A stretch of DNA of 64,000 bases from an uncultured Chloroflexia bacterium (GCA_963774265.1 CAVZDU010000001.1:384001-448000); one strand, 5' to 3'. Numbered from the stretch's first letter, positions 27,721-50,503 are shown. The notes: generated by a model not told the origin, from the letters alone. Made by a program: numbers and translations.

Positions 27721-27823
27721 GATGCTGGTTCCCCGTCCAATGCGCAATGATTGCAGCTTGGAGCGAATCATTCATGCCGACTCACAATCCAGATCACGCC
27801 TTCCCCCAGTTCGCTGGCCGCGC

Positions 27824-27900
27824 GCACGGTGCGCACGGTGCGTACGGTGCGTACGGGCGGACCTGCATGTCCGCCCTCGTGTCCGCCTTCTCGTCCGCCT
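27824..27900 (+). repeat. REP-like element (GTAC-GGGCGGAC family) with amplified ends
   Basis: (GYACGGTGC)3-GTACGGGCGGAC-CTGCAT-GTCCGCCC followed by degenerate GTCCGCC repeats. Confidence 0.85.
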
Positions 27901-27957
27901 GTTTCGCCGCCAGCTACGTGTCCACTCGACCATCGCACCGATCCTCGGAGGTAGTCC

Positions 27958-30059: not shown

Positions 30060-30060
30060 G

Positions 30061-30152
30061 GAATCGAAGATGAAAGATTGAAGATTGAGGGTTGAAGTTC
30101 TGCGTTCCTCAACCTGTGATCTTCAATCTGCAATCGAAAATCGGAAATCGGA
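30061..30152. repeat. Intergenic 7-nt-periodic inverted repeat
   Basis: gattgaa/gattgag/ggttgaa arms versus ctcaacc/cttcaat, then aaatcgg repeats. Confidence 0.6.
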
Positions 30153-30168
30153 AAAAGGAGAAGGTAGT

Positions 30169-32850: not shown

Positions 32851-32880
32851 AGATTACGAAATTGAGACGAACTCCAACCC

Positions 32881-33064
32881 GTACGGGGGTACGGTGCGTA
32901 CGGGCGGACCTGCGTGTCCGCCCCAACCCGCAACTCTTGCGCGACCGCACATCGCCCCCGAAGCGGGAGCGGCGCAGGATGCGCGAAGGGCGGCCGCAGG
33001 ATGCCGTAAGGGCGGCCGCGGATGCCGTACGGGCAGACCTGTGTGTCCGCCCCCGTGTCCGCCC
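32881..33064 (+). repeat. Composite REP-like cluster (two GTAC-GGGCRGAC copies flanking internal direct repeats)
   Basis: Copies at 32898 and 33027; between them gggcggccgc-ggatgccgta occurs twice. Confidence 0.8.
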
Positions 33065-33089
33065 GCACTCGGCAAGGGGGGCCATCCCT

Positions 33090-33902
33090 GTGGGACTACG
33101 TAGCCCGGGTCCAGGCGCCCGGCCTCTTTACATCTGGGCCGTCGACGCGTTGTATGAGCTGATCGAAACGGGCGTCTATGGGCCAGGCCAGCCCCTGCCC
33201 GCTGAGGCCGAGCTTGCCATGCAGTTGGGCGTCTCACGATCTACTCTGCGTGAGGCGCTAGGCTATTTAGAGAAAGATGGGCTAATCATCCGCAAGCACG
33301 GAGTGGGCACCTTCGTGGCGCCTCACTCAGCTCAGATTTCGGGCGGTCTGGAACGATTGGCCACCTTTCGCTCTGTCGCCGAACTTGCGGGCGCGTCCGT
33401 GCAGATTGTATCTCGCACGGTTACCCTGACGGAGGCCGATGAGGTTGCGGGCAGAGCGCTCCAGGTGCCTCCAGGCAGCGAACTGGAGCGGGTGGAAGTG
33501 ACCGAGGCAGTCGACGGCTGCACCATGGTCTATTTGGACGGACTGATTGCCAGTAAGTGGGTGGATCATGAAAAGCTGGCCTCCGACGAGGGGTCGCTCT
33601 TGGAGTATCTGGTCCGGCAGACGCATCTACCGATCGCGTACTCACGTTCATTGATCTACGCCATTGGCGCCAACCAAGACCTGGCCCGCCGGTTGGGCGT
33701 GCCGGAAGGCGAAGCGGTCCTACAGCTGGTCGAGACGGTGTATACCGATAAGGATCTGCCCATCGCATTCTTCCGCAACTACTTTGTGACTAACGGCTAC
33801 CATCTAAAGATCGTCCGCCGGATCGCCAAAGTGCCCGGCATCAAAATGCCCGGCATTAGGGAATTGAAGACTACGGGGGGAAGCGAGCATGGAACGGTTT
33901 AG
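33090..33902 (+). CDS. GntR family (HutC/UTRA) transcriptional regulator
   Basis: LPAEAELAMQLGVSRSTLREAL...GVGTFV HTH plus UTRA-like C-terminus; start uncertain (frame open from 32847; GTG 33090 follows aaggggg). Confidence 0.88.
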   Translation: MGLRSPGPGARPLYIWAVDALYELIETGVYGPGQPLPAEAELAMQLGVSRSTLREALGYLEKDGLIIRKHGVGTFVAPHSAQISGGLERLATFRSVAELAGASVQIVSRTVTLTEADEVAGRALQVPPGSELERVEVTEAVDGCTMVYLDGLIASKWVDHEKLASDEGSLLEYLVRQTHLPIAYSRSLIYAIGANQDLARRLGVPEGEAVLQLVETVYTDKDLPIAFFRNYFVTNGYHLKIVRRIAKVPGIKMPGIRELKTTGGSEHGTV

Positions 33903-34839
33903 CTACGTGCGGGCAGAGAGCATCCCGCACGCGGTGACACTGCTGAACACGCCGGGGGTGCGCAGCCGCGTGCTCGCGGGGGGCACGGATCTGGTGCTCC
34001 TGGCACGTGAAGATCGCGATTTATGCGACCGGGTGATCGACATCACGCTCGTGCCGGAACTACATGAGATTCGGCATGTTCAGTCCGAGCAGGGAAACTG
34101 GCCCGCAGGCCGTCCTGAGGACCGGGTCATCATCGGCGCGGCCGCGACGTTCAGCGAGATCGTGGCGTCCGCGCTCGTTCGTGAGACCGCTCCTCTCCTG
34201 GTCGAGGCCTGCCACTCAGTAGGCGCGACCCAGATTCGCAACATGGGCACCCTGGGTGGGAATGTCGCCAACGCGGCCGCCTGCGCCGATTCCCTCCCGG
34301 CGCTGGTTTGTCTGGATGCGCTGGCGCATGTCCTCACTCCGTCCGGCGAACTAACCTGGCCGGTGGCTGAATTCGTCACCCGGCCAAACCGAACCCAACT
34401 GCCGCCAGGGGGCCTTCTGACCGCGTTGAGCTATTTTGTCCCTGCCCCGGGCAGTCGCAGCGTGTTCCTGAAGTTGGGGCGGCGCAACGCGATGGCGATC
34501 TCTCGCCTGACGGTCGCTGCGCTAGGCCGGACCGATGACGAGGGTTGCATCGCGGAAATACGAATTGTGCCCGGCTCGGCTACACCTCACATTCACCGTT
34601 TCTCGCAGACCGAGTCCCGCATGCTCGGCCAGAAGCCGACCGTCGCGCTGTGTGAAGAGGCCGGACAAATTGCGGTCGCAGAGATGTCAGAGATCACCGG
34701 CAAACGCTGGTCAAGCGAATTCAAAGAGCCTGCTCTGCAGGCCATGGTGACGCGAGCGTTGCTATCCCTCTTCTGCCTCAACGCGAAGCACGAAGCAGAC
34801 CTGTCAAGTCTTGGCGCCAGCGAGGAGACACGGGCATGA
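33889..34839 (+). CDS. Molybdenum hydroxylase FAD-binding subunit (XdhB/CoxM-like)
   Basis: LAGGTDL, QIRNMGTLGGN, FLKLGRRNAMAIS. Confidence 0.92.
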   Translation: MERFSYVRAESIPHAVTLLNTPGVRSRVLAGGTDLVLLAREDRDLCDRVIDITLVPELHEIRHVQSEQGNWPAGRPEDRVIIGAAATFSEIVASALVRETAPLLVEACHSVGATQIRNMGTLGGNVANAAACADSLPALVCLDALAHVLTPSGELTWPVAEFVTRPNRTQLPPGGLLTALSYFVPAPGSRSVFLKLGRRNAMAISRLTVAALGRTDDEGCIAEIRIVPGSATPHIHRFSQTESRMLGQKPTVALCEEAGQIAVAEMSEITGKRWSSEFKEPALQAMVTRALLSLFCLNAKHEADLSSLGASEETRA

Positions 34840-35333
34840 ATATCGAATTCTCGCTAAACGGCAACCCAATAAGTGTCGAAGCCCCGGCTGACATCAGCCT
34901 GCTCCATCTCCTGCGCGACGTCATTGGCCTGACCGGGACAAAGGAAGGCTGCGGCGTCGGCGAGTGCGGCGCGTGCAGCGTTTTGCTCGACGGCCGGCTG
35001 GTCAACTCCTGCCTGGTCCTGGCGCCTCAGGCCGGCGGACGTGAGGTGGTCTCCATCGAAGGCATCCGCGGCGCAGACGGCGGCCCAAATGACCTCCAGC
35101 AGAATTTCATCGATCACGGCGCAGTGCAATGTGGCTATTGCATCCCCGGCATGGTGTTGGCGGGTGAGGCGCTGCTGAGCAGAACGCTGACACCCAACCG
35201 GGCCGAAATCCGGGAAGCCATCGCCGGCAACCTGTGTCGCTGCACCGGTTACCAGCAAATCGTCGATGCTATCGAGGTCACCGCGGCAGATCGTAGGGGC
35301 CAGGTCCACAGGACTGAGGTGACCCATGGCTGA
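34836..35333 (+). CDS. Molybdenum hydroxylase [2Fe-2S] subunit (XdhC/CoxS-like)
   Basis: GTKEGCGVGECGAC, QCGYCIPG, GNLCRCTGY. Confidence 0.95.
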   Translation: MNIEFSLNGNPISVEAPADISLLHLLRDVIGLTGTKEGCGVGECGACSVLLDGRLVNSCLVLAPQAGGREVVSIEGIRGADGGPNDLQQNFIDHGAVQCGYCIPGMVLAGEALLSRTLTPNRAEIREAIAGNLCRCTGYQQIVDAIEVTAADRRGQVHRTEVTHG

Positions 35334-37677
35334 GTTCAAATATGTCGGCAAACCAGCGCGCCGCGTCGATGCACTGGATAAAGTCCTGGGGACGGCCAAG
35401 TACACCGCTGACTATCGCCTGCCGGGCATGTTGCGCGCGCGCTGCCTGCGCAGCGACCTGCCGCACGCACGAATCGTCCGCCTGGATGTGACCCCTGCTC
35501 TGCAGGTGCCGGGCGTGAGGGCGGCCGTCACAGGCGAGGACTATGTCAATCACGGCAACTTTGGCTACCCGGTCCAGGATATGTACATGCTGGCGCACGA
35601 GCGCGTGCGCTACGTGGGAGATGCAATTGCGGCCGTCGCAGCTGAGACCGAAGAAGCACTCGCGGCCGGCCTGGCGGCAATCATCTGTGAGCTAGAGCCA
35701 CTGCCCGGCGTCTTCGACCCGGAAGAGGCGCTGAAGCCGGATGCACCGCTCGTCGGTGAGCAGCCCTGGGACGCACCGACCGAGCCGCGCGGCAACCTGC
35801 TCATAACACATATCGTCCGCAAAGGCGATCCGGACCCCATCCTGCAAGAATCCGAGATTCAACTGGACGAACACTACAGCACCGCTCACCAGGAGCACGC
35901 CTACATTGAGACCGAGGCAGCGCTGGCGGTTCCCTGGCCTGACGGCAGCGGCGTCACGGTCTACTCGCCTAGCCAAAGCCCGTTCGCCGACCGCAACAAC
36001 CTGTGCCGTGTCCTCGGCCTGGGCGTGGAGAACGTGCGCGTGATCCAACCGCCGGTGGGCGGCGCGTTCGGCGGCAAGGATGATCAGATCTATCAGACCA
36101 CGGGCCAGGTGGCCAAACTTGCGCTGCTCACCGGTCGTCCCGTGCAGATGACCTTCAGCCGCGAAGAGTCCATGATCTTCTCCTACAAGCGGAACCCCAT
36201 GCGGGTGCACATCCGGCTCGGGGCCGACCGCAACGGCAAGCTGCGAGCCAGCAAGATCGATCTCGTGGTGGACAGCGGCGCGTACTCGGCCATCACGCCG
36301 TTCGTGGCGTGGCGCGGCAATATCCACGCCATGGGGGCCTATCGCTATGACGCGTGTCACGTCGACACCCATGTGGCATACACCAACAACGGCTATACCG
36401 GCGCGTTCCGCGGATTCGGCAACACAGAGACCACGGCCTGCATCGAGCAGGCTGTGGACATGCTGGCCGACCGCCTGGGCATCGACCCCATCGAGCTGCG
36501 CCTGATGAACTGCCTGCGGCCCTGCGACGAAACCGCGCACGGCCAGCGCCTGGGCGAGGATGTGGCGCTGGTCGAATGCCTGGAGCACGTGCGCCGTGTC
36601 TCCGACTGGGACCGCAAACGCCGCGAATACGGGCGCAACAACCTTCAACCTTCAATCCGTCGCGGCATCGGCGTGGCGTGCTTCTTCCACGGCCTGTCGC
36701 TGGGCGCGGAAGGAGACGACTTCGCGGTCAGCACAATCCAGGTCAATGATGACACTTCGCTCAGCCTCACCTCGGGCCTGACCGATTATGGCACCGGCTC
36801 GCGTACGGTCTTCACGCTCATTGCCGCGGAAGTTCTCGGGCTCAAACCGGAACGCATCCACATGCACCGGCCCGATACCGATACGGCCATCGCCGGCGGT
36901 CCCACCGTCGCCTCGCGCGCTACGGTGTTGGGCGGCAACGCGGTGCGCGTCACGGCCGAGCGGCTTAACAGCCTTCTGCTTCAGGCCGCGGCCGACCTTT
37001 TCGGGTGCAGCCTGATTCAGGTGCTACGTGACGGAGAGCGCTTCATCGGGCCGCAAGAGGAACCAGCTAGCTTCGAAGACGTTGTTAATCATGCCCGCCA
37101 GATGGGTCTGACCCTCTCGGCGCACGGCCGTTGGGACGCACCTGCCATCCATTGGTCGCTGGAGAGCGGCACGGGCAAGCCCTACTTCGCGTATCACTAC
37201 GGCGCGCAGGTGGCGGAAGTCGTTGTAGACATGGGGACGGGTAAGGTGGACGTGTCCGGCATCTGGGCCAGCCACAACACCGGGACGGTGATCTTCCCGC
37301 AGGGGATGCTGGGCCAACTCTATGGCGGGATCACCCAGGGGCTAGGCTACGCGCTGATGGAACGGGTGGACTTCGACCAGGGTTACATGCAGGCAACTAA
37401 CTTCGATGAATATCTGATCCCCACAGCCCTGGATGTTCCTGATATCGTGGGGCACTTCGTGCAAAAACCTTTCAGTTTCGGGCCCTTCGGCGCGAAGAAC
37501 ATAGGCGAGCCCGCCATGGTGCCCACGGCGCCAGCCATCGTCAACGCCATCACCCATGCCACAGGCAGACGCATCCCTGATCTGCCCGCAAACCTGGAGC
37601 GAGTGCTGATCGGTCACGACCTGCGGCAGAAGGGATCGGATCGGGCGTGCAAACTGGGATTGAATGTTACAGGTTGA
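35326..37677 (+). CDS. Xanthine dehydrogenase family molybdopterin-binding subunit 1
   Basis: QEHAYIE, GGAFGGK, AFRGFG, ASR, GAKNIGE. Confidence 0.93.
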   Translation: MAEFKYVGKPARRVDALDKVLGTAKYTADYRLPGMLRARCLRSDLPHARIVRLDVTPALQVPGVRAAVTGEDYVNHGNFGYPVQDMYMLAHERVRYVGDAIAAVAAETEEALAAGLAAIICELEPLPGVFDPEEALKPDAPLVGEQPWDAPTEPRGNLLITHIVRKGDPDPILQESEIQLDEHYSTAHQEHAYIETEAALAVPWPDGSGVTVYSPSQSPFADRNNLCRVLGLGVENVRVIQPPVGGAFGGKDDQIYQTTGQVAKLALLTGRPVQMTFSREESMIFSYKRNPMRVHIRLGADRNGKLRASKIDLVVDSGAYSAITPFVAWRGNIHAMGAYRYDACHVDTHVAYTNNGYTGAFRGFGNTETTACIEQAVDMLADRLGIDPIELRLMNCLRPCDETAHGQRLGEDVALVECLEHVRRVSDWDRKRREYGRNNLQPSIRRGIGVACFFHGLSLGAEGDDFAVSTIQVNDDTSLSLTSGLTDYGTGSRTVFTLIAAEVLGLKPERIHMHRPDTDTAIAGGPTVASRATVLGGNAVRVTAERLNSLLLQAAADLFGCSLIQVLRDGERFIGPQEEPASFEDVVNHARQMGLTLSAHGRWDAPAIHWSLESGTGKPYFAYHYGAQVAEVVVDMGTGKVDVSGIWASHNTGTVIFPQGMLGQLYGGITQGLGYALMERVDFDQGYMQATNFDEYLIPTALDVPDIVGHFVQKPFSFGPFGAKNIGEPAMVPTAPAIVNAITHATGRRIPDLPANLERVLIGHDLRQKGSDRACKLGLNVTG

Positions 37678-37736: not shown

Positions 37737-38948
37737 ATGGATCAAATCAAAGAGCTCCACTCACGTGTCCAACAGAGCCGGGACGACATCATCCAGTTCA
37801 TGCGCGACATCTGCGCCATCCCCTCGATGAACTCCGAAATCGGCCCGGTCGGCGAACGCATCCAGGCCGAGATGCGCAAACTCGGCTGGGAAGAGGCGCG
37901 CTTCGACAAAATGGGCAACACCGTGGGCCGCATCGGCGACGGGCCCAAGGTCATCGTCTACGACTCGCACATCGACACGGTCGGCGTCGGCGACCCCGCT
38001 GAATGGGAATGGGACCCCTTCATCGGCAAGGTGGAGGACGGCCGTCTCTACGCGCGCGGCGCCTGCGACGAAAAAGGCAGCACCCCCGGCATGGTCTATG
38101 GCCTGGCCATGGCGCGCGACCTGGGCTGGCTCGACGGCTACACCGTCTACTACTTCGGTAATATGGAAGAATGGTGTGACGGCATCGCGCCCAATACGTT
38201 TGTAGAGGTGGATCCCAAGGTTCGGCCCGACTTTGTGGTTATCGGCGAGCCGACCAAGATGCAAGTGTACCGCGGACACAAGGGCCGCATCGAGATGAAG
38301 ATCACGGCGTCGGGCCGGTCGGCCCATGCGGCCTCGCACTACCTGGGCGATAACGCTGTGTACAAGATGGCAGCGATTATCACGCAGATACGCGAGCTGG
38401 ATCGTCGTTTCCATTTCGGACTGGGTGTGCACCCGGTGCAAGGATATCCTTCGATCGCGGTCACCGATGTTCATGTCCGTACGGCTTCCCTCAATGCCGT
38501 GCCTGATGAGTTCACGATCTACATCGACCGGCGCATCACTTCAAATGAGCCCCACGACCATGTCATCGATCAGGTCAGGGGGCTCATTCCTGATTATCTT
38601 CAGGAAGAGATCTCCGTCGAGGAGCTCTTCTACGACGAGCCCTCCTACACGGGATTCGTCTTCCCCGTGAGCAAATACTACCCTGCATGGTTGCTGGAAG
38701 ACAACCATCCACTGGCCGCAGCAGGCCAGCGCGCAATCCAGGCGCTCTGGGGTGAAGAACGGCCGCTCGGCACATGGGACTTCTCCACCAATGGCACGTA
38801 TTGGGCGGGCAAGGCAGGCATCCCGTCGATCGGCCTCGGCCCGGGCGACGAGAAAACGGCCCACATGCGCCACGAAAACGTGCCCCTGGACGAAGTCGTC
38901 CAGGCCACCGAATGGTATGCGGCTCTGCCGAAGATGCTTAAGGAATAA
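37737..38948 (+). CDS. ygeY: YgeY family M20 hydrolase
   Basis: DSHIDTVG, RGACDEKG, EEWCDG, EPT...YRGHKGR, FSTNG, GPGDE..AH; purine cluster context. Confidence 0.85.
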   Translation: MDQIKELHSRVQQSRDDIIQFMRDICAIPSMNSEIGPVGERIQAEMRKLGWEEARFDKMGNTVGRIGDGPKVIVYDSHIDTVGVGDPAEWEWDPFIGKVEDGRLYARGACDEKGSTPGMVYGLAMARDLGWLDGYTVYYFGNMEEWCDGIAPNTFVEVDPKVRPDFVVIGEPTKMQVYRGHKGRIEMKITASGRSAHAASHYLGDNAVYKMAAIITQIRELDRRFHFGLGVHPVQGYPSIAVTDVHVRTASLNAVPDEFTIYIDRRITSNEPHDHVIDQVRGLIPDYLQEEISVEELFYDEPSYTGFVFPVSKYYPAWLLEDNHPLAAAGQRAIQALWGEERPLGTWDFSTNGTYWAGKAGIPSIGLGPGDEKTAHMRHENVPLDEVVQATEWYAALPKMLKE

Positions 38949-39050: not shown

Positions 39051-40031
39051 ATGCGTAGCTTTATTGGTCGTGACATCCTTTCGCTCAAAGAATTCGAGCG
39101 TCAGGAATTCTTCCGGGTCTTCGACGTTGCGGCGCGGATGGAACCGGTTGCCCGCGATCGTCGAAACCTGGATATGCTCAAGGACAAGATACTCGTCACC
39201 GCTTTCTATCAGCCGTCCACCCGCACCCGCCTGGCACACGAGGCGGCCATGCACCGGCTGGGCGGCCACGTCACCGGCTTCTCAGACGCGAAGATGACCC
39301 GGGCCGGCGACTGGTATCAGGAGTCGATCAAAGATACCGTCAAGATGTTGGAGTTCTACGGGGATGTGATCGTGATGCGTCACTTCCAGAAGGGCGCACC
39401 GCACGAGGCCGCGATGTGGTCGTCGGTGCCGATCCTCAACGGCGGCGACGGCTGGGGCGAGCACCCGACGCAGATTCTCACGGATCTGTACACCGTTCTG
39501 CAGCAGAAGCACCATATCGACGGGCTCAAGTGGGTCGCCGTAGGCGACATGCGGATGCGGACGATGCACTCACTGGGTTATGCGCTCACGCAGTTCGATT
39601 GCCCCATCACGTTTGTCTCACCAGGCCCGGACGATCTGTTCCCCGGTTCGCCAGACATGCGCATGCCGGAGGAGTACAAGACTGACTTCCAGCGTTATTC
39701 GCTGAATTTCAAGGAGGCCGAGCACGTCGAGCAGGTCATCGCCGACGCTGACGTGATCCTCGTCGAGCCGGTGATCCAGCCGGATTATACGAAGGCCCGC
39801 CAAGAAGCGGCAACCGACTACAGCCTCACCCCTGCCAACTACAAGATTACGCGAGAGCTGCTCGCGACAAAGGCCAAGTCGAATGCCATGCTGCTGCACT
39901 CTCTGCCTCGCATGGATGAAATCCCGCTGGATGTGGACATCACGCGCTGGTCCCGCTATTGGCAGGAGGCGTTCAACGGCGTCGTCATGCGCATGGCACT
40001 ACTGGCGCTCGTCTTGGGCGGCGTAGATTAA
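39051..40031 (+). CDS. ATCase-like carbamoyltransferase with divergent acceptor site
   Basis: FYQPSTRTR, MRH, NGGDG..EHPTQ, HSLPR; canonical PyrB SSxxKGE and RxQxER motifs absent. Confidence 0.85.
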   Translation: MRSFIGRDILSLKEFERQEFFRVFDVAARMEPVARDRRNLDMLKDKILVTAFYQPSTRTRLAHEAAMHRLGGHVTGFSDAKMTRAGDWYQESIKDTVKMLEFYGDVIVMRHFQKGAPHEAAMWSSVPILNGGDGWGEHPTQILTDLYTVLQQKHHIDGLKWVAVGDMRMRTMHSLGYALTQFDCPITFVSPGPDDLFPGSPDMRMPEEYKTDFQRYSLNFKEAEHVEQVIADADVILVEPVIQPDYTKARQEAATDYSLTPANYKITRELLATKAKSNAMLLHSLPRMDEIPLDVDITRWSRYWQEAFNGVVMRMALLALVLGGVD

Positions 40032-40090
40032 ACGTCTGGCCATAGGTTCTTTGTGATTGGTCCAGACTTCAACCAACAGGAGAAAGAGTT

Positions 40091-41077
40091 ATGCAAACCT
40101 ATCTTCATGGCCGTGACCTCATCGGCGATCTCGATTTCTCGAAAGAGGAAGTCGAGACCGTTTTGGACGTGGCGTTCGATCTCAAACGCAAGCGCGCGCT
40201 GAACGAACCCCATGCCTACCTGCGCGATAAGGTGCTCGCGATGCTGTTCTTCTTCAGCAGCACACGCACGCGCGGCTCGTTCGAGGCCGGCATGGCCCAG
40301 CTCGGCGGCCATGGCGCTTTCATCGAAAGCACAACCACCCAGATCGCGCACGGCGACACCCCGAAAGAGATCGGCGAGATTTTCGGCCGCTACTTCGACG
40401 GCATCGCCATCCGCCACTGCGATTGGCCCATCGGCAACGCTTACCTGAACGCGGTTGCGAAAGCTTCCCGCGTGCCGGTGCTCAACATGCAGTGCGAGAT
40501 CTACCACCCCTTCCAGTGTCTCGCCGATCTGATGACCATCATGGAAAAGAAGGGCCGCGATCTGCGCAAGAAGAAGATCGTCGTCTCGTGGGCGTATGCT
40601 GCGTCATACCTCAAGCCGATCTCCGTGCCGCAATCCCTGATCCTGCAGATGCCGCGCTTCGGCATGGATGTCGTGCTGGCGCATCCGCCGGAATTCCAAC
40701 TGATGCCGGAGATTGTGGGCATGGCAAAGGAGCAGGCTCGCAAATTCAAGACCAGCTTCGAGATCGTCAGCGATCCGAATGGCATGGATATCGCTTTCAA
40801 GGATGCGGATGTTATCTACGCCAAGTCGTGGGGGCCGCTGTTGACTACCACCGATAAGGTGGAGGGCAAGAAGCTCCAGGACTCGTACAAGCACTGGATC
40901 ACCGACGAGCGCAAGATGGCCCTCGCCCAGCCCGATGCCATCTACATGCATCCCCTGCCGGCCGACCGCAACATCGAGGTGACCGATGGCGTCATCGATG
41001 GCCCCAACTCGGTCGTCTACGATGAGGCGGAGAATCGCCTGCATGCACAAAAGGCGGTCATGGCGTTGACCATGTAG
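40091..41077 (+). CDS. YgeW-like (knotted) carbamoyltransferase
   Basis: SSTRTR, NMQC...HP.Q..AD, WAYAASYLKPISVPQS, RFGMDV.LAHP, YAKSW, MHPLPAD resemble recalled YgeW motifs; shorter than E. coli YgeW. Confidence 0.8.
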   Translation: MQTYLHGRDLIGDLDFSKEEVETVLDVAFDLKRKRALNEPHAYLRDKVLAMLFFFSSTRTRGSFEAGMAQLGGHGAFIESTTTQIAHGDTPKEIGEIFGRYFDGIAIRHCDWPIGNAYLNAVAKASRVPVLNMQCEIYHPFQCLADLMTIMEKKGRDLRKKKIVVSWAYAASYLKPISVPQSLILQMPRFGMDVVLAHPPEFQLMPEIVGMAKEQARKFKTSFEIVSDPNGMDIAFKDADVIYAKSWGPLLTTTDKVEGKKLQDSYKHWITDERKMALAQPDAIYMHPLPADRNIEVTDGVIDGPNSVVYDEAENRLHAQKAVMALTM

Positions 41078-41090
41078 AAAGAGACAAGAG

Positions 41091-41124
41091 ACCTGATAGG
41101 TTTCCTTCGCGAGACCTGTCAGGT
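41091..41124. repeat. Intergenic palindrome (ACCTGnnAGGT family)
   Basis: ACCTGATAGGTTTC-N6-GAGACCTGTCAGGT. Confidence 0.65.
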
Positions 41125-41142
41125 GCTCCAAGGAGTATCCAC

Positions 41143-42108
41143 ATGACACCACAACCCAAGAGAGTCGCGGTCGTCGCCATTGGCGGTAATTCGCTGATCC
41201 TGGACGCCAAGCACCAAACCGTCGAAGACCAATACCTAGCGGCAAAAGAGACCACTTGTCACATCGCAGATATGATCGAGGCCGGGTGGGAAGTTGCCAT
41301 CGGCCACGGCAATGGGCCACAAGTCGGCTTCATCTTGCGCCGTTCCGAGATCGCAGCGAAGGTCGAGGGCATGCACGAGGTGCCGCTGGACGTGTGTGGC
41401 GCCGATAGCCAGGGCGCCATCGGCTACGCACTGCAGCAGACCCTCCAGAACTGGTTGTTCCAACGCAAGATCCAGAAGAACGTCGCGACAGTCATCACCC
41501 AGGTGCTGGTAGACCGCAACGATTCGGCATTCAAGAATCCCACGAAGCCCATCGGTAGCTTCATGAGTGAAGACGAGGCCAAACGCCGCGAGGCAGAGAT
41601 GGCCTGGTCGGTGGTCGAGGATGCCGGACGGGGCTGGCGCCGCGTCGTCGCATCACCGCTGCCCAAAGAAGTAGTGGAGATCGAGACCGTCAAGGCGCTC
41701 ATCAATGCCGGCGTCGTCGTCATCACGGTAGGCGGGGGCGGCATCCCTGTAATCGACCCGGGCGATGGGAATTACCAGGGCACGGCCGCCGTCATCGATA
41801 AGGACTATGCCTCCAGCTTGCTTGCGCAAAGCATCAATGCCGACATGTTCCTGATCTCGACCGCGGTCGAGAAAGTGGCGATCAACTTCGGCAAGCCGGA
41901 TCAGCAGTGGCTGGACCGCATGACCCTGTCTGAGGCCAAGAAATACCTGGCGGAGGGCAAACACTTCGCCAAGGGGTCGATGGCTCCCAAGGTCCAGGCC
42001 ATCATCTGGTACATGGAAGCCGGCGGCAAGCATGCCATCATCACCAACCCGGAAAACATCGGCCGCGCGCTGCGTGGCGAGACTGGGACACATATCGTGC
42101 CGGATTGA
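41143..42108 (+). CDS. arcC: Carbamate kinase
   Basis: VAIGGNS, HGNGPQVG, NPTKPIG, GWRRVVASP, GGGGIPV, VIDKD, GSMAPKV. Confidence 0.95.
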   Translation: MTPQPKRVAVVAIGGNSLILDAKHQTVEDQYLAAKETTCHIADMIEAGWEVAIGHGNGPQVGFILRRSEIAAKVEGMHEVPLDVCGADSQGAIGYALQQTLQNWLFQRKIQKNVATVITQVLVDRNDSAFKNPTKPIGSFMSEDEAKRREAEMAWSVVEDAGRGWRRVVASPLPKEVVEIETVKALINAGVVVITVGGGGIPVIDPGDGNYQGTAAVIDKDYASSLLAQSINADMFLISTAVEKVAINFGKPDQQWLDRMTLSEAKKYLAEGKHFAKGSMAPKVQAIIWYMEAGGKHAIITNPENIGRALRGETGTHIVPD

Positions 42109-42122
42109 AGTGGGAGCATCAC

Positions 42123-43366
42123 GTGGATCACGTAAAATCGCTGAAGTGTCTGATCTGCGGCGCAGAGTATCGGCCGGACGAGGTGGAGTATATCTGCCCA
42201 CACCATGGGGAAGACGGTATCCTTGACGTCCAGTACGATTACGATCTCATCAAAACCCGCATCAGTCCCCTGTCGCTCGCACAGGACCGCAACAACACCA
42301 TCTGGCGGTATAAACCGCTGTTGCCGATCCACCCTGACAGTCCGGTCCCGCCTCTCACCATAGGTTGGACGCCATTGTACCGGGCTGACCGGCTGGCAGC
42401 GGGGTTGGGGCTGAAGCACGTGTGGGTCAAAGATGACGGGCGCAACCCGAGCGCATCCTTCAAGGATCGGGCGAGTGCTATCGCAGTGGTAAAGGCGCAG
42501 GAGAGGGGCGCCGAGATCATCACCACGTCCAGCACGGGTAATGCCGGCGCAGCGCTTTCCGCACTGTGCGCCAGCGTGGGACAACCCAACGTGATCTTCG
42601 TGCCCGAATCCGCACCACCCGCAAAGGTCGCGCAATTGCTGGTCTACGGCAGCACCGTGATGCTGGTTCGCGGCAGCTACGATGACGCGTTCGAGCTGTG
42701 TGCGTGGGCGGCCAAAGAATTCGGCTGGTACAACCGCAACACTGGCTACAACCCGTACATGAGCGAAGGCAAGAAGACGGCCTCGCTCGAGATTTGTGAG
42801 CAATTAGAGTGGGACGCGCCGGACTGGATCGTCGTCTCGGTCGGGGATGGTTGCATCATCGGCGGTCTGTATAAAGGGCTGTTTGACCTGCACAGCCTCG
42901 GCTGGATCAAAAAGATGCCCCGCATCCTGGGCGTTCAGGCCGCTGGGTCGGCTGCGCTGTACGACGCGTGGCGCACGCGGCATCGACGCAATGGAAATGC
43001 AGCCGATCGACGCACACACGATTGCTGACAGCATCTCCGCCGGGCTGCCGGCCGACCGAATCAAGGGCCTGGCGCGCCGTGCGGGCGACCGGTGGGGCAT
43101 ATACCAAGGTGACCGACGAGGAAATCATCGCGGCGATCCCGGTGCTGGCGCAGCGCAGCGGCGTTTTCGCGGAGCCAGCAGGCGCTGCGTCGTATGCAGG
43201 ACTTAGCCAGGCGGTCAAAGAGGGACTAATCGATCCCGAAGAGCGCATCGTCGTCCTCGTGACCGGCAATGGACTGAAAGACATTGCGACGGCGCGTAAG
43301 TCCGTTTCGGAACCCTATGTTGTTGATAAAGACCTGGCCGACGTGAAACGCGTGCTGGGCCGATAA
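42123..43366 (+). CDS. Threonine synthase-like PLP enzyme (fold type II); frameshifts near 42975 and 43065
   Basis: CxxC...C zinc knuckle, GWTPL, NPSASFKDR, SSTGNAG, EGKKT, EPAGAAS, VTGNGLKD. Confidence 0.85.
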
Positions 43367-43437: not shown

Positions 43438-44899
43438 ATGATCGATCTGACTGTCCATCCCGATCGCCTCGAGCGCACCGTCCAACGGGCGCGCGAGCGC
43501 AACATCATCATCCCGACCTTCAAGCAGATGCAGAACCCGGCCCTCGATCCCCGACAAAGTCAAGGCGGGACTGAAAAACATCGGACTGTGGGATATCAAC
43601 CCATTGAACCTCTTCCGCATCACCTGGAAGAACGAGCCCGTGGCAAAAGGTGGCGGATTCGGCGGCGTTAATTATCTGGACCTGCCCAAGGCGCTGACCG
43701 GTGTGGACGCGCGCATCATTGTGCTGGTGGGCAAGTGGTTCCCCACCGGCGCGCACAAGGTCGGCGCTGCGTTCGGCTGCCTTGCGCCCCGCCTGGTGAC
43801 CGGCCAGTTCGACCCGACCACCCAGAAGGCCGTCTGGCCCTCCACGGGCAACTACTGCCGCGGCGGCGCGTACGATTCGGCCCTGCTGGCATGCCAATCG
43901 ATCGCCATCCTGCCCGAAGGCATGAGCCGCGAGCGGTTCGAATGGCTGTCCAAGGTGGCCGGCGAGGTGATCGCAACCCCTGGCACAGAGAGCAACGTCA
44001 AGGAAATCTTCGACAAGTGCTGGGAGCTGCGCCGCTCGGGCCAGGATCTGATGATCTTCAACCAATTCGAAGAGTTCGGCAATGTCTTGTGGCATTATGC
44101 AGTCACGGGCAATGCCTTTGAAGAAGTGCTGGCGGAGCAACTGCGCCCTGGAGAAACCTTGGCAGGCTCAGTCTTCACCACCGGCTCCGCAGGAACTATC
44201 AACGCAGGCGACCGCTTGAAAGAACTGTTCCCGCAGAGCAAGATCGCAGCCAGCGAGGCGCTGCAATGTCCTACTCTGCTGCAGAACGGCTTCGGCGCAC
44301 ATCGCATCGAAGGCATCGGCGACAAGCACGTGCCGTGGATCCACAATGTCAAGAACACTGACATGGTGATGGCGGTTGACGACGAAGTTCCCATGCAGAT
44401 GATCCGGCTGTTCAACGAGCCGGAGGGGCGCAAGTACCTGGTCGAAAAGGGTGTCCCCGAAGAATTGGTGGCGAAGCTCGACACGATCGGCATTTCCGGT
44501 GCAGCCAACATCGCATCGGCTATCAAGATGGCAAAGTGGTACGAGTGGGGCGAGGGCGATGTAGTTGTCACCCTGCTGACGGACTCCATGGAACTGTACG
44601 GCTCCCGCCTGACTGAGCTCACCGCTGAACGCGGCGAGTTCACTTCCCGCGACGCAGCCGCCGCATATCATCAGCACATCCTGGGCCTCAGCACCGACTA
44701 CGTCGAAGAGCTGACCTATCCGGCCCGCAAGCGCGTACACAACCTGAAGTACTACACCTGGGTCGAGCAACAAGGCAAGACCTATGAAGAAATCCTGGCG
44801 CAGTGGGACCAGAAGGATTACTGGACCAGCGTCCACGGCCAGGTCAATGCAATTGACGCGTTGATCGAGGAGTTTAACGCGAAGGTCGGGTTGCTGTAA
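43438..44899 (+). CDS. PLP-dependent fold type II enzyme (cysteine synthase-like); frameshift near 43545
   Basis: FPTGAHKVGA (PLP Lys), PSTGNY, NQF, GSAGT, HRIEGIGD, GISG. Confidence 0.8.
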
Positions 44900-44918
44900 G
44901 GAAGTGGCCCTGCAACTC

Positions 44919-44999
44919 GTACGGTGCGTACGGTGCGTACGGGCGGACCTGCGTGTCCGCCCTCGTGTCCGCCCTGCGTGTCCGCCCTCGTGTCCGCCC
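44919..44999 (+). repeat. REP-like element (GTAC-GGGCGGAC family) with amplified ends
   Basis: (GTACGGTGC)2-GTACGGGCGGACCTGC followed by four GTGTCCGCCC units. Confidence 0.9.
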
Positions 45000-45026
45000 A
45001 ACCTGCAACCCGAACAGGAGTTTGCC

Positions 45027-48000
45027 ATGTCCGACTACTTGATGATCCAACCCTTCGCCGTCCAGTTGCGGCGGATCCTGAAAGAATACGAGGCGACCGA
45101 TTCCATCTTTGGGATTCACAAGTCGCTCTTCTATACCCCGAAAGCGAACGCCCCGTTCGCAGTCCCCGATGTCTATGGCAAGTATCTGGGCACGCCCATC
45201 GGCCCATCGGCCGGCCCGCACACCCAGTGCAGTCAGAACATCATCAGCGCCTGGTTGTGCGGCGGTCGCTTCATCGAGCTGAAGACGGTGCAGATCCTCG
45301 ACGAGTTGGTGATTCCGCGGCCCTGCATCGACATGGAAGACGAGGGCTACAACGTCGAATGGTCGCAGGAACTGAGGCTGGAAGAATCGGCGCACGAATA
45401 TGCCGTTGCCTGGGCGCTGGTGCACGTCCTGCCGCGCATCTTGCGTTGGGATGTAGGGGCGGGTCTCGCACCCGCCATCCCCGGCGCCATTTTCGACATG
45501 AGCGTTGGCTACAACCTGGAAGGCATCCGTAGCCCGCGCGTCGTCAACTTCATGAACAAGATGGAAGACGCCTCCGAGGAGGTCGCCCAGATCAAGGCCA
45601 TCCTGCGCCGCGACTTCCCTCAGTTCGCAGATATCGAGATCCCCAACCGAATCGCCAACAGCATCACCCTTTCCACCATGCACGGCTGCCCGCCCGATGA
45701 AATCGAGCGCATCACCGAACATCTGTTGACCGACCGTAAGCTGCACACCATCGTCAAGATGAACCCGACCCTGCTGGGCAAGGAACAGGTGCTCGATATC
45801 CTGCACAACGCTCTCGGTTTTCGCGAGATCGTTATCCCCGATTCGGTCTTCGAACATGACATCGCCTACGACAAGGCGGTTGGGCTGATCGGCCGGATGC
45901 AAAACGTGGCTGCACAGCAAGGCCTGGCATTCGGCGTCAAGCTGAGCAACACGCTGGCCATGCACAACCACAAGCAGGTCATGCCCGGCGACGAAATGTA
46001 CATGTCGGGCCGCGCGCTCTACCCGGTCACTATGAACCTGTTTAACAAGCTGGCGCACGAATTTAACGGTGACCTGCGCGTTTCCTACTCGGCCGGCGCA
46101 GATGCGTTGAACATCGCCACCATCGCGTCTTGCGGCCCAGTTCCCATCACCGCCTGCTCTGACCTGCTGAAACCCGGCGGTTACGCCCGTTTCGGCCAAT
46201 GGCTGGAAAACCTTGAAACAGCGATGGTTGCCGCAGGTGCGAAGAACCTGACCGAATTCTCCGCCAACAAACTGGACAACGTCAAGGCCGCCGCAGCTGC
46301 TGCGTTGACTGACCATCGATGGAAGAAAGAATATGTTCCCTACGGCCTGCCCAAAGTGAAATCGGGACTGGGGCTATGGGACTGTATTGTCGCGCCATGC
46401 ATGGAGCCCTGTGCCGTGTGCCAGGACGTGCCGGAATACAATTGGTGGATCGCCCAGGGTGACCCGGACAAATCACTCGAAGTCATCCTGCAGCGCAACC
46501 CCATGCCCGGCGTCACCGGCTACGTCTGCACGCACTTGTGCCAGACGCGCTGCGTTCGCAATGATTACGAGGAGTCAGTTGGCATACGTGCACTCAAACG
46601 TTACGCTGAGGAGCACGGCCAGATTCGGCCGCTCGCTGCCAAAGAAAGCGTGGACCGAAAAGTGGCCATTATCGGCAGCGGCCCATCGGGTTTCTCCGCG
46701 GCCTTCTACCTTGCGCTCAGCGGTGTGGATGTCACCATGTTCGAGGCCAAGGATGTACTGGGGGGTATGATGCGCCTGGTGCCAGTCTTCCGACTGCCGT
46801 GGGAAATCATCCAGCGGGACGTTGACCGCATCCTGAACCTGGGCGTCAAGCTTGAATTCAACCACCCGATCGTCGACGCGCCGGAAAGGCTACTTGTAGG
46901 GGCGGGTCTAGCACCCGCCCAACAGGGGTTTGACGCCGTCGGTTACGATGCCGTCGGTTACGATGCCGTCGGTTACGATGCCGTCGGTTACGACGCAGTG
47001 TACGTGGCTACGGGCTTCCAGAAGGATACGCCATTGCCCATCCCCGGCATTGAAGGACAAGGCGTACATGTCGCCATGGACTTGCTCGACCGGACCCGTC
47101 GTGGAGAGCGCCCGAACCTGGGTAAGAAAGCGCTGGTTATCGGCGGCGGCGACACAGCTATGGACGCAGTACGGACATCCGCCCGCCTGACCGGCAACCC
47201 GACCACCATCGTCTACCGGCGCTCTCGCGAAGAGATGCCAGCCAGTCCCGAGGAACTTGAAGGGGCTCTGGAAGAAAGCAACATCTTGATGGAGCTCGTC
47301 TCGCCGGTGCGCGTTGTGCTGGATGACAGCGGGAAGGTCGTTGCCCTGGAATGCCAACGCAATGTCTTGGGAGAGCCCGGCCCGGACGGCCGTCGCAAGC
47401 CCGTCGCCATTCCTGGCAGCGAGTTCCAGATCCCGTGCGACTCGGTCATCCTCGCAGTTGGCCAAAGTCCCGATTTCGAATTCCTCCGAGGCAGCGCCAT
47501 CAAAACCACCCGACAGGGCGGCATCGCGATTGACCCGGTGACGGGTGCAACCGGAACACCGGGCGTCTACGCCGGGGGTGACGCCGCAGAAGCCGGCCCA
47601 GAAAGCATCATTGCGGCCTGCCAGGGGGGCCGCCGAGCCGCACAGAGCATCTGCCAGCAATTCGGCATCGCTTTCAAAGAGCCGCCCTCGGAAAAGCCTG
47701 TCCTGTCCCAGGACGAAATCATCGAAGTCAAACGAGTGCGGACACGTAAGATCGAACAAGTGGAGCCGGGCTGCCTGCCCGTCCCGTTCCGCAGCGGCTT
47801 CGACATGATCGAATTGACGCTGACGCCGGCCGAGGCCGTCATTGAGGCCAGGCGCTGTGTTCAGTGCACCACCTTCTGCGATAAGTGCGTCGAGGTGTGC
47901 CCCAACCGCGCCAACCAAACCTTCCTCATGCGGCCTGTAGATGTGATGCTACCCCGCCTGGCAATGACCTCAGAGGCGTCGCAACCCGCTGGGTTGCACG

Positions 48001-48467
48001 TGATCGGCTACGAACGCTTCGTCATCGGCCAGGAGCGGCAAATTATCAACATCAACGACTTCTGCAACGTGTGCGGTGACTGCACCACCTTCTGTGTTCA
48101 CCACGGCCAGCCCTGGATGGATAAACCGCGGCTGTTCTTGAACGAAAAGGACTTCCTGGCCGAGGATCACAACGCCTATCGGATAACTGCCAACGGCATG
48201 GATGCCGCCGGCATCATCCGACACCGCGACGTGGGGGCGGCTGGCCAGCCGCGTGAATCACAACTCACGCGGTCTGGCGGCCACCTGGTCTACGAGTGCC
48301 CCGAAGCGCGCGTAACCCTCACGCCGGCATTCGAAATCAAGGAGATGGTTGCGAAGTCGTCGTTTGCCGCCGGCATGCATGCCGCCTTGTCCCTGCGAGA
48401 CGCCGCCGAACTGGCCGTGATTCTCAAGGGCGTCACCGAGACACTGCCGCACCTGGTGGTTGCATAA
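45027..48467 (+). CDS. ygfK: YgfK-like Fe-S flavoprotein oxidoreductase
   Basis: GPSAGPHTQ..QNI, ELKTVQ, PRPCID..DEGYNVEWS, LSTMHGCPP.EIE, KLSNT, MYMSG, GltD-like GSGPSG and GGGDTAMD, C-terminal CDKCVEVCPNRAN and CNVCGDC. Confidence 0.9.
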   Translation: MSDYLMIQPFAVQLRRILKEYEATDSIFGIHKSLFYTPKANAPFAVPDVYGKYLGTPIGPSAGPHTQCSQNIISAWLCGGRFIELKTVQILDELVIPRPCIDMEDEGYNVEWSQELRLEESAHEYAVAWALVHVLPRILRWDVGAGLAPAIPGAIFDMSVGYNLEGIRSPRVVNFMNKMEDASEEVAQIKAILRRDFPQFADIEIPNRIANSITLSTMHGCPPDEIERITEHLLTDRKLHTIVKMNPTLLGKEQVLDILHNALGFREIVIPDSVFEHDIAYDKAVGLIGRMQNVAAQQGLAFGVKLSNTLAMHNHKQVMPGDEMYMSGRALYPVTMNLFNKLAHEFNGDLRVSYSAGADALNIATIASCGPVPITACSDLLKPGGYARFGQWLENLETAMVAAGAKNLTEFSANKLDNVKAAAAAALTDHRWKKEYVPYGLPKVKSGLGLWDCIVAPCMEPCAVCQDVPEYNWWIAQGDPDKSLEVILQRNPMPGVTGYVCTHLCQTRCVRNDYEESVGIRALKRYAEEHGQIRPLAAKESVDRKVAIIGSGPSGFSAAFYLALSGVDVTMFEAKDVLGGMMRLVPVFRLPWEIIQRDVDRILNLGVKLEFNHPIVDAPERLLVGAGLAPAQQGFDAVGYDAVGYDAVGYDAVGYDAVYVATGFQKDTPLPIPGIEGQGVHVAMDLLDRTRRGERPNLGKKALVIGGGDTAMDAVRTSARLTGNPTTIVYRRSREEMPASPEELEGALEESNILMELVSPVRVVLDDSGKVVALECQRNVLGEPGPDGRRKPVAIPGSEFQIPCDSVILAVGQSPDFEFLRGSAIKTTRQGGIAIDPVTGATGTPGVYAGGDAAEAGPESIIAACQGGRRAAQSICQQFGIAFKEPPSEKPVLSQDEIIEVKRVRTRKIEQVEPGCLPVPFRSGFDMIELTLTPAEAVIEARRCVQCTTFCDKCVEVCPNRANQTFLMRPVDVMLPRLAMTSEASQPAGLHVIGYERFVIGQERQIININDFCNVCGDCTTFCVHHGQPWMDKPRLFLNEKDFLAEDHNAYRITANGMDAAGIIRHRDVGAAGQPRESQLTRSGGHLVYECPEARVTLTPAFEIKEMVAKSSFAAGMHAALSLRDAAELAVILKGVTETLPHLVVA
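46932..47000 (+). repeat. In-frame 15-bp tandem repeat (DAVGY)4 inside ygfK
   Basis: GAYGCCGTCGGTTAC x4 plus a partial unit. Confidence 0.95.
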
Positions 48468-48525
48468 AGGAAGAAAGAAGAAGGAAAATTGGGATCTTCC
48501 ATCTTCCTTCTTCCATCTTCCTTCT
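48467..48525. repeat. (GAAGGAA)n-GATC-(TTCCTTC)n palindrome
   Basis: aggaagaaagaagaaggaaaattgggatcttccatcttccttcttccatcttccttct. Confidence 0.85.
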
Positions 48526-48540
48526 CGTAGGAGATGTGAC

Positions 48541-50382: not shown

Positions 50383-50503
50383 GTGGGTGGACTGAGTTCG
50401 CACACGTCGCCAGGACAGGAAGACCACAAAGCTTCACGAAGCGAAAATGAAACTCTTGGTGAAGCGTTATACCCTGGCGCCTTTGTAGTTTACGGAGATG
50501 CAT

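Follow-up and report, generated by a model that had tools for sequence, protein, structure and literature searches.

Within a 64,000-nucleotide stretch of DNA from an uncultured Chloroflexia bacterium (GCA_963774265.1, CAVZDU010000001.1:384001-448000; here called the window, and designated G000:C1:384001-448000 in the assembly G000), positions 39051-42108 contain three co-directional open reading frames (ORFs), coding for two carbamoyltransferases, CT1 and CT2, and a carbamate kinase. As judged from the Xdh, YgeY, YgfK and SsnA homologues encoded around them, they belong to a reductive urate-degradation cluster. CT1 is predicted to be a pseudo-ATCase, a descendant of aspartate carbamoyltransferase (ATCase), which phosphorolyses the ureido group otherwise handled by YgeY and thereby yields one more carbamoyl phosphate and one more ATP; a probability of about 55% is assigned to this reading. 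The gene arrangement itself is real, and it represents a widespread variant of the known pathway with strong conservation; the enzyme group on which it is built is known, though hardly characterised, and is systematically mis-named PyrB. A first-pass annotation, made from the sequence alone, had placed an ATCase-like enzyme before a YgeW-like enzyme and a carbamate kinase, and the three ORFs lie exactly where it had put them. We infer the catalytic steps of CT1 and CT2, the order of these steps, their regiochemistry and the ATP yield from the genes and their sequences.

For anaerobes, two papers from 2025 outline a pathway in which urate is converted to 2,8-dioxopurine by XdhD, which is then dearomatised by YgfK, and in which both rings are opened by SsnA and HyuA to give 2,3-diureidopropionate (10.1101/2025.05.19.654654; 10.1101/2025.04.24.650524). 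One ureido group is removed with phosphate by YgeW and the other one with water by YgeY, which is placed after YgeW by both papers; the resulting diaminopropionate is deaminated by YgeX, and ATP is obtained by YgeW together with the kinase YqeA (10.1101/2025.05.19.654654; 10.1101/2025.04.24.650524). The diureidopropionate through which the first-pass annotation had let the purine route pass is thus 2,3-diureidopropionate in the published pathway. The groups disagree on which of the two ureido groups is taken by YgeW, and a commentary lists this point as an open question (PMC12990295).

CT1 (39051..40031, plus strand) is a protein of 326 amino acids with the Pfam domains OTCace_N and OTCace. 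It exceeds the cut-off of the ATCase model TIGR00670 only narrowly, with 241.0 versus 236.95 bits, and its best solved relative is the ATCase of Pyrococcus abyssi (222 bits), so that the fold can be told from the sequence. Kept motifs and altered acceptor loops had been read from CT1 in the first-pass annotation, and every string quoted there is present in the translation: STRTR is located at residues 56-60, KMTRAGDWYQES at 81-92, HPTQ at 138-141, GDMRMRTMHS at 165-174, EPVIQPDY at 239-246 and HSLPR at 283-287. For ATCases, it has been described that the beta-carboxylate of aspartate is held by R229 and Q231, while the alpha-carboxylate is positioned by R167 and K84, and the motif RxQxER is stated to be present in all known ATCases (PMC4581275).

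An active-site alignment was made with 71 members of the CT1 family (CT1 of the window, 68 from related loci, and those of the genomes G133 and G068), E. coli PyrB and six canonical PyrBs of relatives. In all 71 family members, the ATCase residues S52, T53, R54, T55, R105, H134, Q137, R167, L267 and P268 are kept. In the same 71 sequences, the segment T228-R229-V-Q231-K-E233-R234 is replaced by E-P-V-[V/I/M]-Q-[P/A]-D, K83-K84 by D-[W/F/Y]-Y in a loop which is one residue longer, and HPLP by HSLP, with serine at P266. The six canonical PyrBs of relatives all retain T-R-x-Q-K-E-R in this alignment. The altered acceptor site noticed at first in a single protein is therefore common to the family, with Pro for R229, Glu for T228 and Tyr for K84 throughout; the aspartate-site residues of ATCase (RxQxER and K84) are lost, and R167 alone is kept. 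As read from these residues, CT1 retains the part of ATCase that binds carbamoyl phosphate and the alpha-carboxylate, while the part binding the anionic side chain has been lost and, by charge, reversed, with a predicted acidic or neutral pocket in the place of the cationic anchor of the beta-carboxylate. Since the aspartate site is replaced and the carbamoyl-phosphate site is kept, CT1 is considered a descendant of ATCase and not an ATCase.

A further set of ATCase-like proteins was seen among the representatives collected for the tree described below. Representatives P0129-P0148 are 41-47% identical to CT1, share a 'TR-AGD-x-Y' 80s loop and have no T-R at 228-229, which indicates that the pseudo-ATCase group is larger and more varied than the three subgroups published.

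CT1 is a paralogue of the true PyrB and not PyrB itself, although the CT1 family is named aspartate carbamoyltransferase in public sources. With TIGR00670, a PyrB of 356-378 bits was identified in 21 of 31 relatives (G000 included), and a gene in the CT1 band of 234.6-257.5 bits in 15. Both score classes were found together in 12 of the 31, including G003, G006 and G007, which are three of the seven other genomes of the window's genus. Among 121 genomes of the class, identity to CT1 was bimodal: 23 genomes, counting G000, reached 66% or more, and the remaining values did not exceed 43%. A carbamoyltransferase tree of 82 rows was calculated, containing 49 full-length representatives picked from 150 listed, CT1, CT2, the canonical PyrBs, and PyrB, ArgI and YgeW from E. 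coli. Here, the CT1 clade obtained a Shimodaira-Hasegawa-like approximate likelihood ratio (SH-aLRT) support of 98 and was placed outside of a clade (95) holding E. coli PyrB and all six canonical PyrBs of relatives. A phylogeny versus PyrB had been named in the first-pass annotation as a way of checking its proposal. The absence of pyrI and pyrC from the vicinity, also mentioned there, extends further: PyrI was not found anywhere in the assembly, and the nearest gene of the dihydroorotase superfamily, for a D-hydantoinase, is located about 60 kb upstream.

CT1 is encoded in at least 576 species-level genomes, as identified by a search for related loci, from which 80 loci with 79-95% identity were kept; 77 of these are from Chloroflexota, two from Terriglobia and one from Eiseniibacteriota. 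Among the best 120 database matches, the identity of CT1 was 78-96%. CT2 is the next gene after CT1 in 73 of the 80 loci, and the remaining seven contigs end within 450 bases past CT1, so that CT2 is the next gene wherever the sequence goes on for more than 450 bases beyond CT1 (73 of 73 loci). In the class genomes, CT1 is accompanied by CT2 in 22 of 23 cases, the exception being located at a contig end. This arrangement is far from chance.

The further neighbourhood was counted in those 51 loci whose contigs extend at least 5 kb from CT1 in either direction. Besides CT2 (51 of 51), these contain genes for carbamate kinase (49), a GntR regulator (38), a threonine-synthase-like (ThrS-like) pyridoxal-phosphate (PLP) enzyme (38), a cysteine-synthase-like (CysK-like) PLP enzyme (29), YgeY (28), SsnA (8), XdhA (8) and YgfK (6). 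In the complete set of 80 loci, genes for an 8-oxoguanine-deaminase-like protein (22), adenine deaminase (20), FolD (10) and Bmp-type transporters (about 25) were also identified. The module is purine-linked throughout, with the upstream urate genes being adjacent in a minority of the loci only, to which the window belongs.

CT2 (40091..41077, plus strand) consists of 328 amino acids and is predicted, from the comparisons given here, to be the local equivalent of YgeW. It scored below all NCBIfam cut-offs, with 248 versus 306 bits for ornithine carbamoyltransferase (OTCase), 246 versus 288 bits for acetylornithine carbamoyltransferase (AOTCase), and 177.4 versus 500 and 188.8 versus 453 bits for the YgeW models TIGR03316 and NF005538, respectively. 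Compared to E. coli YgeW (about 396 amino acids), CT2 is 68 residues shorter, with three deletions, and both proteins have the blocks QIAHG, NxQC..HPxQ, WAYxxSYxKPxSVPQ and YxKSW in common. CT2 is 35% identical to the E. coli protein and branches as its sister (SH-aLRT 91), which confirms the YgeW-like character that had been ascribed to this neighbour. CT2 orthologs with at least 69% identity are present in 55 of the 121 class genomes, 33 of which are without CT1. In the latter, CT2 typically abuts YgeY, as in G082 (YgeY-CT2-kinase) and G025 (YgeY-CT2), a pairing that points to the logic known from E. coli, with one phosphorolysis and one hydrolysis.

Paralogues of CT2 were observed at two further types of loci. 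In G000 itself, paralogues of CT2 and YgeY are encoded in a second cluster (G000:C2:578000-590000) together with an Xdh-like protein, a protein with a DHO_dh domain (PydA/UacX-like) and an SsnA-like amidohydrolase; this cluster may represent a second urate-type or a pyrimidine-type reductive route with a carbamoyltransferase of its own. Locus L100 (G023:C24:12000-26000) combines a gene of the YgeY type with two paralogues of CT2, whose identities to CT2 are 44% and 37%, and a gene for carbamate kinase, and tandems of this type are also present in the gene coordinates of G040, G046 and others (Anaerolineae).

The distribution of YgeY was analysed in the 121-genome class sample using the YgeY of the window as query at E<=1e-100 (identities 49-100%), and orthologs were identified in 43 genomes. 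For the 33 genomes with CT2 and without CT1, an ortholog was present in 30, the exceptions being G020, G104 and G139; G020 and G104 contain a more divergent YgeY-family gene, located beside CT2 in G020. For the 23 CT1 genomes, an ortholog was present in only 10, and among these the copy of G070 is frame-broken and the copy of G051 is truncated where its contig ends. In G133 (99% complete, 3 contigs), G068 and G137, which contain CT1-CT2, SsnA and HyuA, a search at E<=1e-80 gave no match of the YgeY family. In the tree of CT2, rows that are positive for CT1 and negative for YgeY are found in several separate places. This is suggestive of YgeY being dispensable where CT1 exists, and it agrees with what a second phosphorolytic route predicts, namely an optional YgeY. 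The remark in the first-pass annotation that YgeY is still present holds, with the gene directly upstream of CT1, and the doubt drawn from it, that CT1 might handle another substrate, has become sharper in form: YgeY is optional in company with CT1, being present in 28 of 51 loci and in 10 of 23 genomes versus 30 of 33. For G070, which was counted as YgeY-positive, a decay of the shortened YgeY beside CT1 was considered and rejected, as the shortening is a frame break and the GntR and ThrS-like genes are broken too.

For the route as a whole, SsnA and a D-hydantoinase encoded elsewhere would open the reduced purine to 2,3-diureidopropionate. CT2 would phosphorolyse one ureido group, as YgeW does, and CT1 would phosphorolyse the other one, which YgeY in E. 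coli merely hydrolyses. The single carbamate kinase would take up both carbamoyl phosphates, yielding two ATP per urate and not one, and the 2,3-diaminopropionate would be deaminated by the ThrS-like PLP enzyme in place of YgeX. With respect to regiochemistry, the 3-ureido group would most likely be the one taken by CT2, and 3-amino-2-ureidopropionate would lose its 2-ureido (N-alpha) group to CT1. Because both 2025 papers put YgeY after YgeW, the substrate of CT1 should be the mono-ureido intermediate. YgeY belongs to the family of N-alpha-acyl amino acid hydrolases. This family membership, the ATCase ancestry of CT1 (alpha-amino chemistry, with R167 and R105 kept) and the invariant Glu at the site of T228-R229 in ATCase favour 3-amino-2-ureidopropionate, a substrate that would be in line with Liu et al. 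and at odds with Li et al. CT1 might then be a 2,3-diaminopropionate N-alpha-carbamoyltransferase, an activity not yet described, which together with CT2 would give two ATP per urate by substrate-level phosphorylation; this narrower assignment is proposed tentatively and with some doubt. As a part of it, the repeated occurrence of an alpha-amino-specific ATCase descendant where YgeY has been lost would imply that the substrate of YgeY is a 2-ureido compound and that YgeW takes the 3-ureido group. In an alternative order, CT1 could act on diureidopropionate to give albizziin, followed by CT2 acting on albizziin, which would mirror the Rubrobacter enzyme acting on allantoate.

A number of observations weigh against CT1 as the enzyme that takes over the ureido group of YgeY. 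YgeY is retained next to CT1 in the window and in 28 of the 51 full-length loci, which implies that CT1 is not simply a replacement of YgeY and may serve another substrate. The association of CT1 and YgeY was drawn from related genomes, and in an independent-pairs test on the CT2 tree it was not significant (four supported contrasts, median p of 1). SsnA was identified in 22 of 23 and a HyuA-type protein in 20 of 23 CT1 genomes, but their presence discriminates little, because each of them is found in 92 of 121 genomes class-wide. In G038 (96% complete), CT1, CT2 and the ThrS-like gene are located on one contig, and no SsnA, HyuA-type or YgeY ortholog was found at the thresholds used. CT1 passes the NCBI cut-off for ATCase and is the only ATCase-like gene found in G000. 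ATCases use L-aspartate. For the intermediates of the pathway, an (R) configuration has been proposed (Liu et al., 10.1101/2025.04.24.650524). Finally, E. coli YgeW was reported to yield albizziin, which means that the 2-ureido group is removed (Li et al., PMC12507026); if CT2 acted in this way, CT1 would have to act on the side-chain ureido group, unlike ATCases.

In another reading, CT1 would be a catabolic carbamoyltransferase for a different ureido compound, acting in parallel to CT2 and YgeY with the kinase alone in common. Candidates would be allantoate or ureidoglycine, an N-carbamoyl amino acid produced by the hydantoinase, or an intermediate on the way from 8-oxoguanine or adenine. 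The retention of YgeY beside CT1 and the module of G038 without SsnA or HyuA fit this explanation, as do the many loci that contain 8-oxoguanine-deaminase-like and adenine deaminase genes with no SsnA or YgfK within 10 kb, and allantoate is the substrate of the one characterised pseudo-ATCase (PMC4016543). However, CT2 always accompanies CT1 in DNA that extends far enough, YgeY orthologs are lacking chiefly in the presence of CT1, and no allantoinase was recognised, the sole candidate for a cyclic amidohydrolase scoring as D-hydantoinase, while uricase and allantoinase were not searched genome-wide. A different ureido compound is hence regarded as unlikely, yet as a serious competitor.

A working ATCase (PyrB) that is located in a catabolic operon by chance would explain the TIGR00670 score above the cut-off and the public naming. 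In the assembly of the window (G000; 5.5 Mb, 10 contigs, 84% complete), canonical pyrB, pyrI and carB were not found, while pyrF was found, and a synteny search with the pyrB region of a congener gave nothing, which is uninformative at 84% completeness. With this completeness and the frequent frame breaks of the assembly, the missing pyrB cannot be read as real and is unsurprising. The replacement of RxQxER and K84 in all 71 members, the finding of both a canonical PyrB and a CT1-band gene in 12 of 31 relatives (three congeners among them), the position of CT1 outside of the PyrB clade and the lack of pyrI and of a neighbouring pyrC leave hardly any room for this explanation. In the first-pass annotation, a normal ATCase being the only pyrB of the genome had been named as the counter-case. 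CT1 is indeed the only ATCase-family gene found in G000, but it is not a normal ATCase, and congeners carry canonical PyrB. A non-catalytic or regulatory partner, for instance a structural subunit with CT2 or the kinase, would be in line with the strict adjacency of CT1 and CT2 and the very high conservation of CT1, and a transferase working in the synthetic direction, trapping carbamoyl phosphate on an amine, was considered along with it. For a pseudoenzyme, the invariance of all carbamoyl-phosphate-binding and catalytic residues in 71 of 71 sequences would be unexpected, and CT1 is part of a catabolic operon with a carbamate kinase gene, which makes these roles very improbable. Phosphorolysis of the ureido group of YgeY by CT1 is therefore kept as the preferred reading; it corresponds to the suggestion of the first-pass annotation that both ureido groups could be phosphorolysed, with a doubled ATP yield of the kinase per purine.

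The carbamate kinase (41143..42108, plus strand) scored 417.6 bits with NF009007 (cut-off 266) and 382.5 bits with TIGR00746 (cut-off 358.25). It is the only one found in G000, where one tblastn match, with 54% identity, was obtained with E. coli YqeA. Its stop codon overlaps with the gene for the ThrS-like PLP enzyme (42105..43366, plus strand; Pfam PALP), which is read in three frames in the window and has frame breaks when compared to the intact ortholog of G133 (L096:14276-15574). The best solved relatives of this enzyme are threonine synthases. YgeX was not found in G000 with the E. coli protein as query, and a diaminopropionate ammonia-lyase of the YgeX type was identified in one of the 121 class genomes. 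An ortholog of the ThrS-like enzyme is present in 92 of the 121, including all 23 with CT1 and many without CT1, and its gene is often located beside CT2 or YgeY, also in genomes lacking CT1. An arrival of this gene together with CT1 is ruled out by this distribution. By its occurrence and family, the enzyme is likely a class-wide non-orthologous stand-in for YgeX.

All real genes between about 27.7 and 54.4 kb of the window are located on the plus strand, and in this block the curated NCBIfam cut-offs are exceeded by YgeY, YgfK, SsnA and the kinase. The YgeY-family M20 amidohydrolase (37737..38948), which adjoins CT1 directly on the upstream side, obtained 445.2 bits with TIGR03526 (cut-off 321.5) and is 37% identical to E. 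coli YgeY. Downstream of the ThrS-like gene, a CysK-like PLP enzyme is encoded (43604..44899, plus strand), with a weak CysK match of 94.6 bits, a Pfam PALP match of 49 bits and at most 65 bits to cysteine synthases of the PDB; this gene is present in 35 of the 80 related loci. It is followed on the plus strand by a YgfK-type Fe-S flavoenzyme (44904..48467; TIGR03315 870.4 bits, cut-off 835.3), which in 1077 positions aligned with E. coli YgfK, a 2,8-dioxopurine reductase, shows 36% identity, and by the SsnA amidohydrolase for opening of the six-membered ring (48460..49884; NF005540 553.7 bits, cut-off 444; TIGR03314 525 bits, cut-off 455.5). A YgfK above the cut-off thus adjoins SsnA in a window from the Chloroflexota (44904-49884), and YgfK is present in 7 of the 80 CT1 loci; Chloroflexota are said by Li et al. 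to be without YgfK/UacX and to use an F420-type enzyme instead (PMC12507026).

Two enzymes of the xanthine dehydrogenase family are encoded in the plus-strand block. The first (33889..37677) consists of a flavin adenine dinucleotide (FAD) subunit (33889-34839), a 2Fe-2S subunit (34836-35333) and a molybdenum subunit (35326-37677), with complete Pfam domains and scores below the cut-offs of the XdhB, XdhC and PucD/XdhA models. The second (50498..54411) has a fused FAD/2Fe-2S subunit (50498-52063) and a molybdenum subunit (51901-54411), with NCBIfam matches below cut-offs. The best XdhD-like gene of the assembly is located outside the window at G000:C10:54818-57835. A HyuA-like gene, about 60 kb upstream (G000:C1:361356-362714), scored 393.5 bits as D-hydantoinase (cut-off 393.25) and 247.6 bits with the allantoinase model (cut-off 357.85). 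For the reductive urate set, SsnA, YgfK, YgeY and the kinase are thus encoded in the window, the HyuA-type and XdhD-like proteins elsewhere, and YgeX was not found.

Further upstream on the same strand, fragments of a BMP/PnrA-type ATP-binding cassette (ABC) importer were identified (27722..31007; two permeases and a binding protein, with partial NCBIfam matches to ABC_B6_perm_2, ABC_B6_perm_1 and ABC_BMP_B6), which from its family probably transports a purine or nucleoside; the orthologs of the binding protein in related loci belong to Pfam Bmp. Adjacent to it are an ABC transporter ATPase with two cassettes (31282..32850; NF047930 514 bits, two Pfam ABC_tran domains), present in 28 of 80 related loci, and a GntR/UTRA (HutC-type) regulator (32847..33902; Pfam GntR and UTRA). 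In 57 of the 80 loci, CT1 or YgeY is closely preceded by a GntR gene. A promoter and terminator scan gave 23 terminator-like sites in the window versus 14.5 +/- 4.4 in shuffles; the plus-strand sites at 43386 and 49910 are compatible with operon ends, but carry little weight. With regard to expression, a search of sequencing runs gave no RNA data set containing this DNA, and the share of its sequence words was at most 0.12 in any run.

The closest database relatives of the window are metagenome-assembled genomes (MAGs) of Anaerolineae (Chloroflexota). In G000, the ThrS-like gene (42105-43366) and the ABC permease and binding-protein genes (27722-31007) are frame-broken or fragmentary, and outside the window frame breaks were seen in an argF-like gene (G000:C2:20836-21745) and in the CT2 paralogue (G000:C2:586147-587154). 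This suggests an indel-rich assembly or gene decay, and it may explain the completeness figure of 84%. In the related loci, additional ORFs were noticed. An ORF of 678 amino acids without Pfam or NCBIfam match is located between the kinase and the Bmp binding protein in L057 (13119-15155) and 7-8 other loci, and in 16 of the 80 loci (for example, L027:8263-8676) a small '23S rRNA intervening sequence protein' ORF (PF05635) interrupts the series of CT1, CT2 and kinase genes. In L041, L042 and L053, from two Terriglobia MAGs and one Eiseniibacteriota MAG, CT1-CT2-kinase-ThrS-like blocks were found with about 80% identity to that of the window, to be explained by lateral transfer or else by mis-binning.

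It was not until 2025 that the reductive urate pathway was solved, and the order and regiochemistry of the ureido cleavages are disputed (PMC12990295), so the CT1-CT2 variant represents a ready-made probe of the disputed steps. If the prediction is true, the exchange of a hydrolase for a second carbamoyltransferase doubles the energy gained per purine, which bears on anaerobes in soils, sediments and digesters. If CT1 is in addition an N-alpha-carbamoyltransferase, the dispute on YgeW and YgeY would be settled in favour of YgeW taking the 3-ureido group. At least 576 species-level genomes carry CT1 under the name of PyrB, so that reconstructions of Chloroflexota metabolism will credit pyrimidine synthesis to a catabolic gene. 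In principle, a module of this kind might also serve in engineered urate-lowering probiotics, at which one of the 2025 papers aims.

In comparison to the reductive urate pathway of E. coli and Clostridium sporogenes, with the genes ygeW-ygeX-ygeY-hyuA-yqeA and ygfK-ssnA-ygfM-xdhD as listed in the publications (PMC12507026; 10.1101/2025.04.24.650524), the system described here contains likewise YgfK, SsnA, YgeY, the kinase, proteins of the Xdh family, a D-hydantoinase and a YgeW relative beside the kinase, and ATP is proposed, from the genes alone, to be gained from a ureido group via carbamoyl phosphate. It differs by having two carbamoyltransferases and not one, by ThrS-like and CysK-like PLP genes in the place of YgeX, which was not found, and by a YgeY that many relatives can do without. 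In the literature searched, no description of a reductive pathway with two transferases was found, and the text of PMC12507026 contains no mention of PyrB, aspartate carbamoyltransferase or two carbamoyltransferases, the supplements of the pathway papers being outside the search. In the arginine deiminase pathway, with its catabolic ornithine carbamoyltransferase and kinase, ureido phosphorolysis is also pulled by carbamate kinase to yield ATP; however, it involves one transferase and one ureido group per substrate, which is citrulline. The L-2,3-diaminopropionate transcarbamylase of zwittermicin and viomycin biosynthesis, named in PMC4581275, interconverts diaminopropionate and beta-ureidoalanine (albizziin), which is among the reactions proposed here; compared by reaction only, it differs in being biosynthetic and OTCase-like.

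The closest known group is that of the pseudo-ATCases, introduced by Barba et al. in 2013 as ATCase-annotated paralogues which keep STRT and HPTQ, have lost RxQ, are altered at H265-P268 and have their root near the P. abyssi ATCase (PMC4016543). By its sequence, CT1 falls under this definition: it keeps STRT and HPTQ, has lost RxQ and has H[ST]LP for HPLP, its family coexists with genuine PyrB, and its closest solved relative is the P. abyssi ATCase, the outgroup in that work. In the published description, subgroup 2 consists of a single pseudo-ATCase from Nocardioides sp. JS614, beside a ygeW homologue, xdhABC and hyuA, for which no function is proposed there (PMC4016543). The context of CT1, with a YgeW relative and Xdh, fits this subgroup as far as the published description goes, which has one member while the CT1 family is encoded in at least 576 species-level genomes. 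At R229-Q231, CT1 has P-V-[V/I/M] in the present alignment, which matches none of the published signatures AIA/AIS/SIA, GX[SC] and VXP; as a V-E-P is located two residues upstream, the subgroup indicated by this motif varies with the alignment. With a pseudo-ATCase beside a ygeW homologue having been described in 2013 (PMC4016543), the idea of two transferases is not new in kind.

For one pseudo-ATCase, Rxyl_2847 of Rubrobacter xylanophilus (ureidoglycine carbamoyltransferase, UGTCase), the cleavage of allantoate with phosphate to ureidoglycine and carbamoyl phosphate has been shown (PMC4016543). UGTCase is different from CT1 in its substrate allantoate, in belonging to an oxidative pathway with uricase and allantoinase in its context, neither of which was seen in the window, and in its motifs HPLA and AIA/AIS/SIA. 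However, both are pseudo-ATCases encoded beside a carbamate kinase in a purine-catabolic cluster, and, as UGTCase uses phosphate to split off one of the ureido groups of a diureido acid, CT1 is proposed from its sequence to act alike.

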